A DNA stretch of 13,709 nucleotides, taken from UHGV virus genome UHGV-0265340; one strand, 5' to 3'. The DNA is from a virus. Below the pieces are notes generated by a model, which had not been told where the DNA came from, did no database searches, and was given only the letters and a program-made list of their open reading frames with translations. A program made the position numbers and the translations under genes. This document shows, piece by piece, positions 2,282 to 13,709 of the stretch. Within the stretch, counting starts at the first letter, position 1. Each line of letters starts with the position of its first letter.

Positions 2282-2527
2282 TCACCGGATTACCACATCC
2301 CACTCCGGCTCCTGCCATCTCAAATCCGGTGAATCATTTCTCTCAGGAATAACCATTACGTCCTTTTCCCTTCGCTCCCTTTCTATCGCCATCACAGCCA
2401 ATGCTGTAACCATGATGTATTTTTGTTCGTCGGTTCCTGTTTCATAACGACGCATGAGGGTAAACTCGGGGCGATCAGTAACCTCAATGATTTCGTTAAT
2501 TTCTTTAATTTCGCGAGGAATATCCAT
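2282..2527 (-). CDS. Hypothetical small charged protein (81 aa), divergent from the DUF4145-like gene
   Basis: ATG at 2527 preceded on the minus strand by a strong SD (AAGGAGA, 8-nt spacing); translation is E/R-rich and protein-like; no recognisable family. Its start overlaps the plus-strand start at the CCATGG palindrome (2524-2529), so it may be spurious. Confidence 0.3.
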   Translation of the reverse strand: MDIPREIKEINEIIEVTDRPEFTLMRRYETGTDEQKYIMVTALAVMAIERERREKDVMVIPERNDSPDLRWQEPEWDVVIR

Positions 2528-3200
2528 GGGTTTAGTCTCCTTTGATATCACATGCCCGCACTGTTTAAAAGAGCGAGCTGTTATTGAGGCATTTGCCGAA
2601 AAACAAATTGAAAAAACACCTTTTTTTAACGTCGCTTTTGTATGCAGAAGTTGTCATCGAGGAGGTGTTGCTATTGTTGAAATCCCATCAGACCACTATC
2701 ACGGTCCCATGGCGGAAAGCCAGAAAAAAGACCTCGATATTCTGATTTCAGGAAATAGCCAGTACCGTTTCCGCAAGATCTATCCTGTGGTCAAAAAAAT
2801 TACCGCACCAGAATATACACCCCCGGTTGCAGACCGTACTTTTGTTGAGGCAAAAGAGGATTTACAGAGGAGGCGGTACGACACAGTGGTTATTCTTTGT
2901 CGCAGAGTCCTCGATATCTCCACGAAAAAACTGCTCGGCGATGAAGCAGGAAAAGAATCGCTGTCGCAACGTATTCAGATGATTTACAAAAAAGGCCTGA
3001 TCACTGAACAGATGAAGGAATGGGCTCATATTGTACGAATTGATGCCAATAAAGCAGTTCATACAGATGAAGTTTTCACACCAATTGAGGCAAGCCAGAT
3101 CCTGAGTTTTACCGAAATGTTTTTAGTCTACGCCTTCACTCTGCCTGCAATGGTGGAAGCCAGACGTGAACAAAAAAGATCAGATTCAGCCTCTATATGA
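2526..3200 (+). CDS. Zn-ribbon + DUF4145-like (putative HEPN-type) protein, candidate defence effector
   Basis: 224-aa ORF from ATG 2526 with SD GAGGAA (2515-2520); N-terminal CPHC (C10,C13) ... CRSC (C40,C43) zinc ribbon; C-terminal helical region with R171-x7-H179 (RIDANKAVH) matching the DUF4145 signature as I recall it. Confidence 0.85.
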   Translation: MGLVSFDITCPHCLKERAVIEAFAEKQIEKTPFFNVAFVCRSCHRGGVAIVEIPSDHYHGPMAESQKKDLDILISGNSQYRFRKIYPVVKKITAPEYTPPVADRTFVEAKEDLQRRRYDTVVILCRRVLDISTKKLLGDEAGKESLSQRIQMIYKKGLITEQMKEWAHIVRIDANKAVHTDEVFTPIEASQILSFTEMFLVYAFTLPAMVEARREQKRSDSASI

Positions 3201-8723: not shown

Positions 8724-8726
8724 TTG

Positions 8727-9440
8727 ATGACCACACCTTCAGTTTTGCCGCAAAAATTATGGCGTCCGCTTGCAGAGATTAAAAACTTCGTTGAAAAAAT
8801 GCCTGATGGTGTTCGCCTTACGGAGGTTACAAAAAAAGTTAAGACGTTTGCCGAACTGTCAGGAAAAGAGAGAAACCAGCTCATAGATTTTATCGATAAA
8901 CGGGAAAGCATCATTGTATTTAAGGTCAGAAAAGAAGGTTCTGGTAACGGAGTAACCTTTTTCCGCCACAAAAAATATGGATATCCCAAACGGGAAGGAA
9001 ACGTCACAATCATTAAGGACCTTCAATCAAAATTATGTACCAGATGCGGGCAGACAAAATCAGTCAATGATTTTTATTCAGATGCCAGCAAGCGTGACGG
9101 GAGAGCCATTTATTGCAAGAAGTGCGAATCTGCAATGAAACGCTCACGCAGAGAATGCAACAAATTAATTCTGCAACAACAGGAACCTGAAATGAATAAC
9201 CTCAAAGCAGTTTCACCTTCACCAGAAATACTCAGAAAACAGGCTGAAGAATTGCTGAAAGCCGCCGAAATTGCGGAGAAAAAACGCCAGGAAGATGATG
9301 CATTCAACAAAAAACTTGCGCCCTTAAAACTTGAAATTCTTCAGGCCGCCGGAAAAATGCAGCTTAAACTGGACGAATTCATCGACTGTATGGATGAAAT
9401 GAATAAAGCAGTTCAGAAGCTTAAAGAGCTGACCGCCTGA
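8727..9440 (+). CDS. Hypothetical protein with CxxC...CxxC zinc ribbon and coiled-coil-like C-terminus
   Basis: 237-aa ORF from ATG 8727 (SD GAGG 8717-8720, 6-nt spacing; starts 4 bp after the N stop); CTRCG...CKKCE motif; K/E-rich helical C-terminus; AT-rich codon usage typical of phage cargo; no family recognised. Confidence 0.75.
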   Translation: MTTPSVLPQKLWRPLAEIKNFVEKMPDGVRLTEVTKKVKTFAELSGKERNQLIDFIDKRESIIVFKVRKEGSGNGVTFFRHKKYGYPKREGNVTIIKDLQSKLCTRCGQTKSVNDFYSDASKRDGRAIYCKKCESAMKRSRRECNKLILQQQEPEMNNLKAVSPSPEILRKQAEELLKAAEIAEKKRQEDDAFNKKLAPLKLEILQAAGKMQLKLDEFIDCMDEMNKAVQKLKELTA

Positions 9441-10009: not shown

Positions 10010-10248
10010 AAATTCACTCTCCTTACGGGGTTTGTAGTTGAGGAGTTCTCCACGGGTGAGGTGGAGATCGTGCGCCGGACACGGGTAAGTTCCGGCACTC
10101 TCAGTTTACTGAACAGACATTACCCTGAAAGCCAGGGTACAACACGAAAGTGCACGGCGAAGACTCTTTCCCATTGAAGGCTTGTCGTTAGATTTCTTCG
10201 ACCGTGCGCTTCCGGTTGTGAATAACAACATTGCTGTGTGTAGCCCTT

Positions 10249-10290
10249 GGCGGACATCGGTTTGCCGATTGCTGATGTCCGCCCTTTTTA
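10249..10290 (+). terminator. Strong intrinsic terminator with no adjacent upstream CDS
   Basis: Stem GGCGGACATC (10249-10258) / GATGTCCGCC (10274-10283) with an inner ATCGG/CCGAT pairing, followed by CTTTTT (10284-10289); nearest upstream plus-strand CDS ends at 9831. Confidence 0.6.
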
Positions 10291-10465
10291 AAGTGAATTT
10301 TGTGATGCGGTGAATGCGGCTATGCGCACGCGGAACAGTTAAACCGACAGGATGTCACGGAAAGTCATCGTCCCCTGACCCGGCGTTAGTTGTTAACTGG
10401 TTAACGTCACCTGGAGGCACCAGGCACCGCATCAACAAAGTTCATTTGTGAAAATGGAGATAATT

Positions 10466-10687
10466 ATGATTGCTCATCACTTCGGAACTGATGAAATACC
10501 ACGTCAGTGCGTGACGCCTGGCGATTATGTTCTTCATGAAGGTCGGACATATATCGCTTCAGCAAACAATATTGAAAAGAGAAAACTCTATATTCGTAAC
10601 TTCACAACAAAAACATGCATTACCGACTGCATGATTAAAGTTTTCATCGGGCGCGATGGCTTACCCGTAAAAGCAGCGTCGTTGTGA
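10466..10687 (+). CDS. Hypothetical small protein (73 aa)
   Basis: ATG 10466 with SD GGAGA (10456-10460, 5-nt spacing); in-frame alternative ATG 10454 and GTG 10448; Cys-containing, AT-rich; no family recognised. Confidence 0.5.
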
Positions 10688-10770
10688 CGAGTAATAAAAT
10701 ACACCTTCCATATCTGTAACAGACAAGCCGAAATAAAACCGCATTAATTATCAATCACGGAAAAATCAAA

Positions 10771-11157
10771 ATGAAAGAGCTTGCGCAAAATGAAATATTT
10801 TCCGAAACCAGTCCTGATGCAATAAATGAACTCAAAGAAATTGCAGAACGCATCAGTAAAATATGCAAAGAATACAAAATCGACTTTGTATTTTCTTTTT
10901 CAGTGCTTACAGAAGTTGGAAATAACGAATATAAGGACAGCCGTTTTGTTTTATGTGGGTTAAATGGCAAAACACCAAGCCCATATATTCATGCTGCACG
11001 TGAAGTTGTCAGAAGCAACATTGGAGTACAACAAATCCATACACTTGCACAGGCTCTTGAGTTTGCAAGAGAAAATTCTGAGTGCGACTGCCCTGAATGC
11101 CAGCACGAAAAGGGAAAAACAACTCACAAAACAGCAAACCAGGCAACCTTCCACTGA
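10771..11157 (+). CDS. Hypothetical protein (128 aa) with C-terminal Cys cluster
   Basis: ATG 10771; helical acidic N-terminus; CDCPECQHEKGK near the C-terminus; very AT-rich; no family recognised. Confidence 0.65.
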   Translation: MKELAQNEIFSETSPDAINELKEIAERISKICKEYKIDFVFSFSVLTEVGNNEYKDSRFVLCGLNGKTPSPYIHAAREVVRSNIGVQQIHTLAQALEFARENSECDCPECQHEKGKTTHKTANQATFH

Positions 11158-11264
11158 AATAAAAATCCGGCAGCGCAGGCTACCGGATTTCTCCCTGCGT
11201 CACCGTATTCGGAGAAATCAGACAAAGGGCCGCTAATTCTAATCCAGCCAGAGGTTTAAATACA

Positions 11265-13337
11265 ATGAGCGCTGATAAACAGACTTTTGCACTACACTGC
11301 GAAGCAAAAAACGATAAAGTCAGAAAACGCCTTGGCATCAAAGGCGGTTTTTTCTGGACCGAGGCCAGAAAACTTTCTGTCGCAGTTTCCCGCTGCATTG
11401 CAGCCATGGACGATGCAGGCTACGACGAGGATGATTTCAAAAAACCCGTTCGCGTAAATTTCCCCGTCGTGAATGACCTTCCACCGGAAGGCGTGTTTGA
11501 TACTGAATTCTGCAACCGCTATGAAAAAGGCGGTAACGATGGCATCACCATGATGGCTATCCCCTTCGATGACAACATCAACGGTGAAGATGCCACAACT
11601 GCTGGCGATGACAACGATAACCTGGACGGAACTATTCCGGATGATGTGGAGAAAAGCGAATCCCCGGACAGCGACGATGACTGTTCTGAGTGTGAAATTC
11701 CCGTCGCCACTCTGAGCCTTACTCATCGCTTCCTTCACCTCTTCTTATTCAGCAAAGATGAAGATGGAAAATACCGGCATCATGCCACACCAGAACAACG
11801 CAATAACGTGATCCGTATGGAGATGGACACAGAGGACAGTTACCTTCAGAGCCTGCTTACTGCTGTGCGCGCCGCGCATCATGAACTGGATAAACTGACG
11901 AACTATCACCTTAGTCGCCTGGCTGAATCTGTAGGGAAAGCATTCCCCCACTCTGCAAATCATCGCATCAGCCCGGCTGAATTCGACAAGTTCATTTCCA
12001 CCTGGATGAAAACTGACTACCTTGATCAGGGCCTGCTGACAAAAGAATGGCAGAACGGAAATTATGTTTCAGGCATTACCCGTACGCCTTCCGGTGCTAA
12101 CGCTGGCGGCGGAAATATTACCGATCGTGGTGAAGGATTCAAACATGATAAGACATCACTCGCACGAGATGTAGCCACCGGCGTTCTGGCCCGTTCAATG
12201 GATGTGGATATTTATAACCTGCACCCAGCACACGCAAAACGCGTTGAAGAAATCGTGTCAGAGAATAAGCCGCCCTTTTCTGTTTTTCGCGACAAATTTA
12301 TCGCCATGCCCGGTGGGCTGGATTATTCCCGCGCCATTGTGGTGGCTTCCGTGAAAGAAGCACCAATCGGCATTGAGGCCATCCCGGCACGCGTGACTGA
12401 ATATCTCAACAAAGTGTTGACCGAAACCGATCACGCTAACCCGGATCCGGAAATCGTGGAAATTGCCTGCGGTCGCTCATCAGCACCGATGCCGCAGCGC
12501 GGAACAGCAGAAGGAAAACATGGCGATGAAGAAAAGCAACAAGCATCGGACACAATGGCTAATGAACAGGCAGCGCCTGAATCAGTGGAAGAAATTCCAG
12601 TTAAACATAATGAGGACACGCAATCACTGGAAAATGTCTCATCTGTAGAAACGAAATACCAGGAACTGAGGGAGGAACTCAATAAAGCCAGGGAAAACAT
12701 CCCCCCAAAAAATCCAGTCGATGCCGACAAATTACTGGCTGCCTCGCGTGGAGAATTCGTTGAAGGCATCAGTAACCCTGCTGATCCGAAGTGGGTGAAG
12801 GGGATCCAGACTCGCGACACTGAGGACCAGAATCAGTCCAAAGTGGAACAAATTGCCCCAGAAGCGGGACAAAACAGCCCGGATACGCAACAAAACGGGC
12901 CAGAAGAGCAACAGCCAGGGCCAGTAGCGCAACCGGAGCTGGAAAAAAACTGCCGCGTCTGTGGTCAGACTGGCGGGGGTAACTGCCCTGACTGTAGTGC
13001 GGTAATGGGCGATAGCACTTACACAGAAACTTTTGGAGAAAATGACGCCGCTGATGGAGAAGACTCAGCACAAACTGAGGAGAAGATCATTCAGGAAAAC
13101 TCTGTTGATGCCGCTCAGGAGGGCGAAACCGTTGTTCAGAACGAGCCAGGCAGTGATACGTCCGGCGATGACGCCAATTCTGAGCCAGTAACTCTCGACT
13201 GGAAAAGACAGCTCGTGATTGCCGCCGTCTATGGTTTGTGCGCCAACCCCGCATGTATAGCCACAGCGCCAGCAATCCCTGATATCGCCATCATGATTGC
13301 CAACAGGCTTGAAAATTTCGGAGGTGATAAATCATGA
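11265..13337 (+). CDS. Large acidic protein resembling the non-catalytic N-terminal region of RecE (exonuclease VIII) family prophage proteins; nuclease domain apparently absent
   Basis: 690-aa ORF from ATG 11265 (GAGG 11251-11254); D/E-rich low-complexity stretches; CRVCGQ...CPDC motif; segments such as NFPVVNDLP and [16 protein letters not shown]...[16 protein letters not shown]...[10 protein letters not shown]...[12 protein letters not shown] match my recollection of the Rac RecE N-terminal region (unverified); stop overlaps the gam ATG (ATGA 13334-13337). Confidence 0.8.
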
Positions 13338-13630
13338 ATGCCTGGCTTATCCCCGATCGCATTGAAGAGCAGTCATGGGCACGACACTACCAGCAAATTG
13401 CCCGTGAAGAAACTGAAGCTGAGCTGGCAGACGACCTGGAAAAAGGTCTGCCCCAACACCTGTTTGAATCGCTATGCATCGATAATCTGCAACGTCACGG
13501 GGCCAGCAAAAAAGCTATTTCCCGTGCATTTGATGACGATGTCGATTTTCAGGAACGCATGGCAGAACACATCCGCTACATGGCTGAAACCATCGCCCGT
13601 CACCAAATTAATATTGATTCAGAGGTATAA
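13334..13630 (+). CDS. gam: Gam host-nuclease (RecBCD) inhibitor, lambda type
   Basis: 98-aa ORF almost colinear and near-identical to the short (GamS) form of lambda Gam as recalled ([44 protein letters not shown]...[23 protein letters not shown]). Confidence 0.95.
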
Positions 13631-13635
13631 AACGG

Positions 13636-13709
13636 ATGAGTACAGCACTCGCAACGCTGGCAGGGAAGCTGGCTGAACGTGTCGGCATGGATTCTGTCGA
13701 CCCACAGGA
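13636..13709 (+). CDS. bet: Bet (Red-beta) single-strand annealing protein, 5' fragment (runs off the window)
   Basis: ATG 13636 six bp after the gam stop; first 24 codons MSTALATLAGKLAERVGMDSVDPQ match the lambda Bet N-terminus as recalled; ORF is open to the window end. Confidence 0.9.
   Translation, partial: MSTALATLAGKLAERVGMDSVDPQ

Follow-up and report, generated by a model that had tools for sequence, protein, structure and literature searches.

A probable non-nuclease relative of RecE with a conserved C-terminal domain of its own, encoded beside gam in an Escherichia coli lambdoid prophage

Introduction

To our knowledge, the function of the first ~600 residues of RecE, the exonuclease of the Rac prophage, has remained unassigned for decades. 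Within full-length RecE this N-terminal region boosts linear-linear recombination and makes RecET the preferred system for direct cloning. The nuclease itself is a C-terminal PD-(D/E)xK domain of the RecB type (PF12684; residues ~564/606-866 of Rac RecE, PDB 3H4R), and this domain served as our criterion for a RecE nuclease. Here we analyse a RecE relative in UHGV virus genome UHGV-0265340, a DNA stretch of 13,709 nucleotides (nt) that is called the window below. The protein of 690 amino acids (aa) is encoded on the plus strand by an open reading frame (ORF) at 11265..13337 that starts with ATG; it is homologous to the RecE N-terminus, lacks the nuclease domain and ends in a tail of its own (RecE-N/tail protein).

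Nuclease-less RecE relatives have been noticed before, though they are uncharacterised, and the 690-aa protein is a further member of this kind. In its treatment of lambdoid early-left operons, one study describes nuclease-less 'RecE-2' proteins, often encoded near int and of unknown role, and notes DnaQ-like nucleases in the same operons (PMC12315714, Genome Res 2025). A survey of the prophages of O157 Sakai counts ExoVIII-type systems without separating architectures (PMC2669165).

Results

Relation of the 690-aa protein to RecE

The protein is acidic, as the initial annotation had stated (pI 4.58, D+E 18%), and three stretches reach 26-40% D/E. The NCBIfam model NF007259 'exodeoxyribonuclease VIII' matched it with an E-value of 5e-223 over model positions 1-598 of 877; the score of 743 bits did not reach the equivalog cut-off of 1269. 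Pfam PF06630 (Exonuc_VIII) was found at aa 55-197 with 48.4 bits (cut-off 25). BLASTP against K-12 Rac RecE gave 54% identity between query residues 58-601 and RecE residues 50-555 (E 2e-180). The nearest full-length relative, P0119, is a 1049-aa E. coli protein with both PF06630 and PF12684, encoded in a locus of canonical order (RecE-RecT-Lar-Exc-Int), and is 81% identical up to ~aa 593. When the boundaries of homology were mapped, the alignment to full-length RecE stopped at this same point. RecE homology spans residues 1-~592, i.e. the non-catalytic part, which bears out the resemblance first proposed for the conserved block.

The nuclease domain is missing, as had also been claimed. PF12684 was not matched in the Pfam search, a profile built from five RecE nuclease domains gave -1.7 bits with all filters off, and no PDB sequence matched at E<=1. 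No nuclease fold was recognised in the AlphaFold2 (AF2) model, and neither a known fold nor an enzyme motif was found in the protein. No RecT partner is present beside the gene; gam and lambda bet lie downstream.

One feature of the initial annotation has to be corrected. Four cysteines (C563-x2-C566-x7-C574-x2-C577; 12951..12995, +) form a putative zinc ribbon, which was not confidently modelled by AF2 and had been regarded as an addition to the RecE N-terminus. Rac RecE (CNAC...CPDC) and P0119 have the motif at the same aligned position, so it is ancestral to RecE.

The protein carries names already, among them 'RecE family exodeoxyribonuclease' in RefSeq, phrog_607 and probably 'RecE-2'. 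The gene is thus a named one, but none of these names reflects a tested function. The names rest on N-terminal homology only. The database label 'exodeoxyribonuclease VIII' appears to be a mis-transfer from full-length RecE, and judging from its sequence the 690-aa protein is almost certainly not an exonuclease.

A conserved C-terminal tail in place of the nuclease

RecE homology ends in an acidic disordered linker (linker 3, aa 593-641; 13041..13187, +; 30.6% D/E), which is followed by a conserved tail domain (aa 642-690; 13188..13334, +) with two predicted helices (646-660 and 671-685, pLDDT 57-70; pLDDT, predicted local distance difference test) and the motif QQLTIAALQGLCANPA...DDIPxMAxxLA. 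Across 22 aligned tail-type proteins that share 21-65% identity with the window protein, this tail of ~45 aa is the best-conserved segment, with the consensus LTYxQQLTIAALQGLCANPAxxxxxDDIPxMAxxLAxxV. Six of its positions are invariant in all 22 sequences (L650, A653, A654, G657, N661 and P662). The family motif QQLxxAAxxGLCANP...(D/E)(I/L)PxMA is recognisable within the last ~50 residues of the window protein, which keeps all six invariants. In place of the acidic D(D/E) pair it has PA, which marks it as a divergent member of the family. Tails of this type were found in five genera (Escherichia, Citrobacter, Lelliottia, Buttiauxella and Cedecea) and on 108 viral contigs.

Searches with the tail against Pfam at E<=10, PDB sequences and, by tblastn, 50,697 phage records at E<=10 returned the family only, and phrog_26058 and phrog_607 were the sole matches among the PHROGs. 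The tail as a known domain was rejected on these results. A likeness to 'RDYFAAQALAGLLAN' motifs of small phage proteins, or to the DDDIPF tip at the C-terminus of SSB, was unsupported and is not claimed. A hydrophobic membrane anchor was also rejected, the family consensus being rich in Q, N and D.

At the DNA level, window 13040-13354 (from aa ~593 to 690) comes from neither the RecE nor the lambda source. The E. coli protein looks like a chimera of a RecE N-part of the Rac type, which reaches through the zinc ribbon, and a tail that stems from an older lineage without the nuclease. This reading is based on the fact that all invariant tail positions are present in the window protein though the acidic pair has been lost.

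Domain layout and selection

The AF2 model was built on an alignment of 22 sequences and had a mean pLDDT of 64.9. Confident prediction begins with an N-terminal alpha/beta domain (aa 1-102; 11265..11570, +; confident over aa 1-100). It is followed by acidic disordered linker 1 (aa 103-140; 11571..11684, +), which has 39.5% D/E and pLDDT <50 and ends in C140-x2-C143, and by a helical domain (aa 141-267; 11685..12065, +; pLDDT 77-90) that can be aligned across the tail-type family. The family core (12066..12500, +; pLDDT 82-95) consists of a Gly-rich loop (aa 268-291) and a second helical domain (aa 292-412). The loop has the motif SGAxxGGxNxTDR and the helical domain ends in DIACGR, as aligned with 21 family members. 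A helix at aa 459-477 and an adjoining conserved motif (12639..12794, +) were recognised from the model and from sequence conservation; Rac RecE and some of the distant tail-type proteins conserve this segment, which matches the exonuclease families phrog_412 and phrog_2082. Confidence in the two helical domains extends over aa 141-265 and aa 292-410. Disorder was predicted for residues 103-140, 268-291, 413-458 and 511-641.

The ratio of nonsynonymous to synonymous substitution rates (dN/dS) was computed against three diverged E. coli alleles. It was 0.20-0.28 for the whole gene, 0.11 for the core, 0.12-0.31 for the tail and 0.4-1.0 for the acidic linkers. The gene is intact and under purifying selection. 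The core combines the highest pLDDT of the model with the lowest dN/dS and is common to nearly all of the 204 family clusters described below; its identity is 80-93% in RecE proteins of the Rac type and 33-44% in the RecE proteins of Gifsy, Klebsiella and HK225.

In the tail-type alignment the invariant or near-invariant positions are only hydrophobic or small residues together with R155 and C402, and no acidic or His residue is conserved among the 22 proteins. This pattern favours a binding or scaffold protein over an enzyme. With neither conserved residues of catalytic type nor a known fold, we infer that the 690-aa protein is not an enzyme.

The operon and its mosaic DNA

The window belongs to a lambdoid prophage of E. 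coli, whose N-antiterminated early-left operon contains the 690-aa gene. Upstream lies a kil gene of the Rac type (KilR; 10448..10687, +; phrog_294, E 1e-37), with 83% DNA identity to kilR of K-12 Rac and annotated as kil in a 99.9% identical chromosome. Between kil and the 690-aa gene is a 128-aa ORF (10771..11157, +; phrog_2016, E 2e-78) without a Pfam or PADLOC match. It was rejected as RacC for lack of similarity, though it stands in the position of RacC. It always accompanies the E. coli tail-type gene and may for this reason be a partner.

The stop codon TGA of the 690-aa ORF (13335-13337) overlaps the start of gam in the sequence ATGA, and a Shine-Dalgarno-like GGAGGTG (13320..13326, +) lies within the tail coding sequence, 7 nt upstream of the gam ATG. 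The gene is thus translationally coupled to gam. No slippery heptamer that could fuse the 690-aa protein to Gam by a -1 frameshift is visible at 13320-13337. The gam gene (13334..13630, +) encodes 98 aa (Pfam PF06064, 216 bits, E 4.8e-65) that align to residues 41-138 of lambda Gam; it is of GamS length only and the GamL extension is absent. The 5' end of bet (13636..13709, +) is cut by the end of the window, and its 24 residues are all identical to the N-terminus of lambda Bet. The order of overlapping ORF, gam and bet given in the initial annotation is therefore confirmed.

Beyond the window, the same module is complete in related genomes. Full bet and a 226-aa exo of the lambda type follow in the JNEC-KY204 chromosome (99.9% identical) and in phage PhiR5_2 (98.1%), where the gene order is N-two ORFs-kilR-128-aa ORF-690-aa gene-gam-bet-exo-DUF4222-int. 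Bet and exo (PF03837, PF09588) were also found in loci L019-L026. Gam, bet and a YqaJ-type exo are thus present in Red order, with exo seen outside the window in related genomes.

A recombination-module mosaic, as first suggested, was evident from DNA comparison, in which kilR and the recE-derived gene are Rac-like and the sequence from within gam onward is lambda-like. Window 10204-10701 (kilR) has 83% identity to Rac, window 11251-12850 has 95% identity to the full-length recE locus of P0119, and window 12007-13012 has 76% identity to Rac recE. Homology to lambda DNA (87.6%) is not seen before 13355, which lies 21 nt into gam. Because neither 13334-13354 (7 codons) nor any DNA upstream of it resembles lambda, the recombination joint of the tail-type gene with the Red module is placed inside gam.

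One family with alternative C-termini

An exhaustive profile-free search of 1.84 billion representatives recovered only 204 clusters at the 50% identity level. More than 110 clusters at 90% identity hold proteins of 663-700 aa from E. coli and Shigella that are 76-99% identical. The window variant was found over at least 80% of the query in 79 of 5,426 complete E. coli genomes, O104:H4 outbreak strains among them. The gene is compatible with phage viability, as it is carried by four phages deposited as complete genomes (PhiR5_2, phiSTEC1589-Stx1c, POCJ13 and 75/02 Stx).

We sorted the C-termini of 84 cluster representatives of at least 450 aa. About 20 clusters end in the RecE PD-(D/E)xK nuclease (NUC) and about 22 in the hydrophobic tail of the window protein (TAIL). 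Thirteen clusters end in an Rv2179c-like DEDDh 3'-5' exonuclease (PF16473), seven in a sequence with ...KYLEGRLRRL... and four in a fifth kind; the other ~18 are unclassified or fragments. The ...KYLEGRLRRL... ending has weak Ead/Ea22 similarity, and another variant ends in ...AAIxGMLAM.... The N-module thus occurs in this family with interchangeable C-termini, namely a 5'-3' PD-(D/E)xK nuclease, a DEDDh 3'-5' exonuclease or the tail.

The initial annotation had seen in this gene an orphan left over from the joining of two modules. This was not sustained: the protein has a conserved tail of ~45 aa, its dN/dS is that of a selected gene, the family extends down to 21-30% identity, and distant members occur in prophages with no recombination module nearby. 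It is very probable that the gene is intact and under selection and that its product is a RecE-N protein which is no nuclease and has a conserved C-terminal domain of its own.

Genomic contexts of the tail-type genes

Scans for the tail motif located 8 loci in GTDB genomes and 80 in IMG/VR, which were annotated by reference and with Pfam. They fall into three clades. Clade (a), from E. coli and at least 79% identical, has the order kilR-(ydaE)-128-aa gene-gene-gam-bet-exo. Clade (b), 49-63% identical, has kilR-ydaE-racC-gene-gam, followed by bet-exo or by a Sak4-like AAA_24 protein. The latter was seen in L068 (5167-6264; 365 aa) as well as in L073, L075, L079, L080 and L090. Because this protein replaces bet-exo there, the pair of RecE-N/tail gene and gam seems to have been kept while the recombinase was swapped. 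NUC-type genes adjoin recT.

Clade (c), at most 34% identical (Citrobacter, Lelliottia, Buttiauxella and Cedecea), has the order gene-small protein-xis-int. The small downstream gene encodes a winged-helix protein of 75-121 aa (Rrf2-like or DprA_WH-like), often with a 4-nt overlap, or DUF7740; examples are L011:8449-8811, L012:8155-8379, L018:7139-7480 and L014:2388-2651.

Eight gam loci seemingly without bet and exo were considered as an exclusive RecE-N-Gam pair, which was rejected. One has an IS66-like insertion and L068 has the Sak4-like gene. In the former, L072 (8372-10704, -), the three ORFs directly after gam (512, 115 and 133 aa) have the layout of an IS66-family element and displace the remaining module. 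A 140-aa ORF was rejected as Gam, the gam frame being an overlapping 99-aa ORF.

The DEDDh-type genes (e.g. P0123, P0146 and P0160; loci L107-L133) directly adjoin int. No RecT, Bet, Exo or Gam was detected at these loci in an annealase search with a reference set.

Other features of the window

A terminator-like hairpin, CGCCTTGGCATCAAAGGCG then GTTTTTTCTG, lies at 11328-11346 (+), with a T-run to 11356, within codons 22-31 of the 690-aa gene. Terminator-like sites in the region numbered 20, against 7.1 expected from shuffled sequences. The hairpin may represent a terminator of the tL type that N reads through, or it may be due to chance.

Other genes of the window encode NinB, an ORF6N antirepressor-like protein, HigB/HigA, DUF4145, DUF977, DUF1627, a DnaC-like loader, cII, cro, an S24 repressor and N. 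The HigB-like toxin (PF05015; 1555-1929, +) and the HigA-type HTH antitoxin (1929-2234, +) form an inserted pair that separates the nin region from the replication genes and is encoded on the other strand from its neighbours. They adjoin a 248-aa DUF4145 protein (2454-3200, +) with a weak match to PD-T7-4, a candidate defence model of PADLOC (E 0.0026, 15 bits); the protein may be a prophage-borne defence moron. A 238-aa early-left ORF (8724-9440, +; phrog_2539, no Pfam match) has ~90 central residues that match PHROG families of Lar-like restriction alleviation, endonuclease VII and HNH proteins (E 1e-6 to 1e-9), probably through a shared zinc-finger motif. In the 99.9% identical chromosome (L001), the prophage is integrated in ynfG (17876-18415; annotated partial, N-terminus missing), and its integrase is annotated intD.

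Discussion

The 690-aa protein is very probably a non-catalytic RecE relative. It has a small alpha/beta domain and two helical domains, joined by a further conserved helix, a putative zinc ribbon and long, acidic, disordered linkers, and a dedicated two-helix domain of ~45 residues stands where RecE has the PD-(D/E)xK exonuclease. We suggest that, once the prophage is induced, it assists or scaffolds transactions at DNA ends. The tail would supply self-association or partner docking, as the nuclease domain does in RecE, and the N-module could thereby cooperate in trans with nucleases and annealases that come from the host or from separate genes. That the N-module works with a nuclease is hinted at most strongly by the way in which the tail and two unrelated exonuclease folds take turns on it. 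We put the probability of this mechanism, in which a protein without enzymatic activity assists or scaffolds at DNA ends, at about 0.3-0.45.

Several observations weigh against this mechanism. No RecT, ERF, YqaJ, Gam, SSB or AAA_24 was found among the 75 ORFs that flank clade (c) genes, so a role tied to the phage recombination module cannot be general; no other observation speaks as strongly against such a restriction. Docking of the tail on Exo, Bet or Gam is likewise weakened by the clade (c) loci, which have no Red or RecT genes nearby. The tail has no detectable similarity to the Exo-binding C-terminal domain of Bet (hhalign probability of 0.1% between the tail profile and lambda Bet), and the relatives of the DEDDh type are without a detectable annealase neighbour. 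The predicted structure draws on only 22 sequences, at a mean pLDDT of 65. Fu et al. (2012) reportedly saw no stimulation of recombination when the N-fragment of RecE was provided in trans.

The main rival is a host-directed function like that of Gam, kept alive by the surroundings of clade (c), whose members occur without any recombination genes. The protein would be a host-takeover or counter-defence factor, with acidic stretches or a core that bind and inhibit a host protein, e.g. a nuclease, as Gam does RecBCD, and with a tail that binds the target. The gene has host-directed early-left neighbours on both sides, kilR upstream and gam downstream, and its coupling to gam holds in clades (a) and (b), including those loci at which the Sak4-like gene replaces bet-exo. 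The three linkers with 26-40% D/E and the absence of conserved catalytic residues also agree with such a role. However, the acidic linkers evolve fastest and cannot be aligned across the family, unlike those of a dedicated DNA mimic, and in other proteins the same N-module is joined to genuine recombination nucleases with RecT as their partner. The protein matches no known anti-defence family, and no defence-model match at E<=0.01 was obtained with PADLOC-DB v2 for the window protein, P0123, P0225 or P0127. We hold this explanation to be somewhat unlikely.

A regulatory or architectural DNA-binding protein of the integration and excision end, acting with the winged-helix protein, Xis and Int, is improbable. 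It would account for the clade (c) order, where the winged-helix gene and xis/int follow directly, and for the zinc ribbon of the E. coli forms. The clade (c) proteins lack this ribbon, however, no HTH or other DNA-binding domain was detected in the window protein, and the E. coli gene is set apart from int by gam-bet-exo-DUF4222.

It could further be argued that recE was truncated as gam-bet-exo replaced its 3' end and recT, and that a decaying, functionless remnant is left. The DNA mosaic and the lack of a nuclease domain would be expected from such an event. This account is already largely refuted and has very little probability: constraint is domain-specific at a dN/dS of 0.2-0.28, hundreds of intact copies exist, a specific C-terminal domain is kept in other genera at 21-30% overall identity, and the start and Shine-Dalgarno sequence of the coupled gam lie inside the tail coding sequence. 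An exonuclease with a cryptic active site, in line with the RefSeq, GenBank and PHROG names, is the least credible of all, given that these names were transferred from N-terminal homology and that the NF007259 cut-off, PF12684, the nuclease profile, the PDB search, the fold and conserved acidic or His residues all fail to support it.

Returning to the accessory or scaffold protein, a wider proposal can be made. The RecE N-module might be a portable 'DNA-end adaptor' that requires an exonuclease, either a fused 5'-3' or 3'-5' nuclease or a partner recruited in trans by a docking tail. We regard this generalisation as unlikely. If it were true, the free-standing protein would give lambda Red the linear-linear proficiency of full-length RecE and would be a natural separation-of-function allele for dissecting the RecE N-terminus. 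The gene is in any case a natural, selected, free-standing version of the RecE N-terminal region beside a Red system. Its naming has consequences as well. Hundreds of RefSeq entries, including those from prophages of the O104:H4 lineage and from Shigella Stx phages, label the protein an exodeoxyribonuclease, so that surveys of phage recombination modules will miscount nucleases.

Four known systems can be compared with this locus. Rac RecE and its relatives (Gifsy-1/2, HK225, mEp237 and P0119) share with the 690-aa protein the N-terminal core, the KYQELR...PADPKW segment and the CxxC-x7-CxxC ribbon, and have the same place in the early-left operon downstream of kilR. The 690-aa protein differs in having an acidic linker and the 45-aa tail instead of the PF12684 nuclease, and its gene has gam-bet-exo downstream instead of a RecT partner. 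Compared with the Red module of lambda, gam, bet and, in the related genomes, exo are of lambda type and alike in order and spacing, whereas lambda has kil/cIII upstream of gam where this locus has the RecE-derived gene that overlaps gam in ATGA, and gam departs from lambda over its first 21 nt. The fusions of RecE-N to a DEDDh domain in E. coli prophages (P0123, ~800-820 aa) are alike in the N-module (64% identity over aa 199-606) and in their place next to int, but have a 3'-5' exonuclease at the C-terminus and not the tail. The tail-type family (phrog_26058 and part of phrog_607) is probably the 'RecE-2' of PMC12315714, with which it can be compared by description. As that source describes them on the early-left operons, these proteins are nuclease-less, encoded early-left and of unknown role, which fits the family, clade (c) above all; they are termed 'distantly' related to RecE there, whereas the N-part of the window protein is closely related to Rac RecE.

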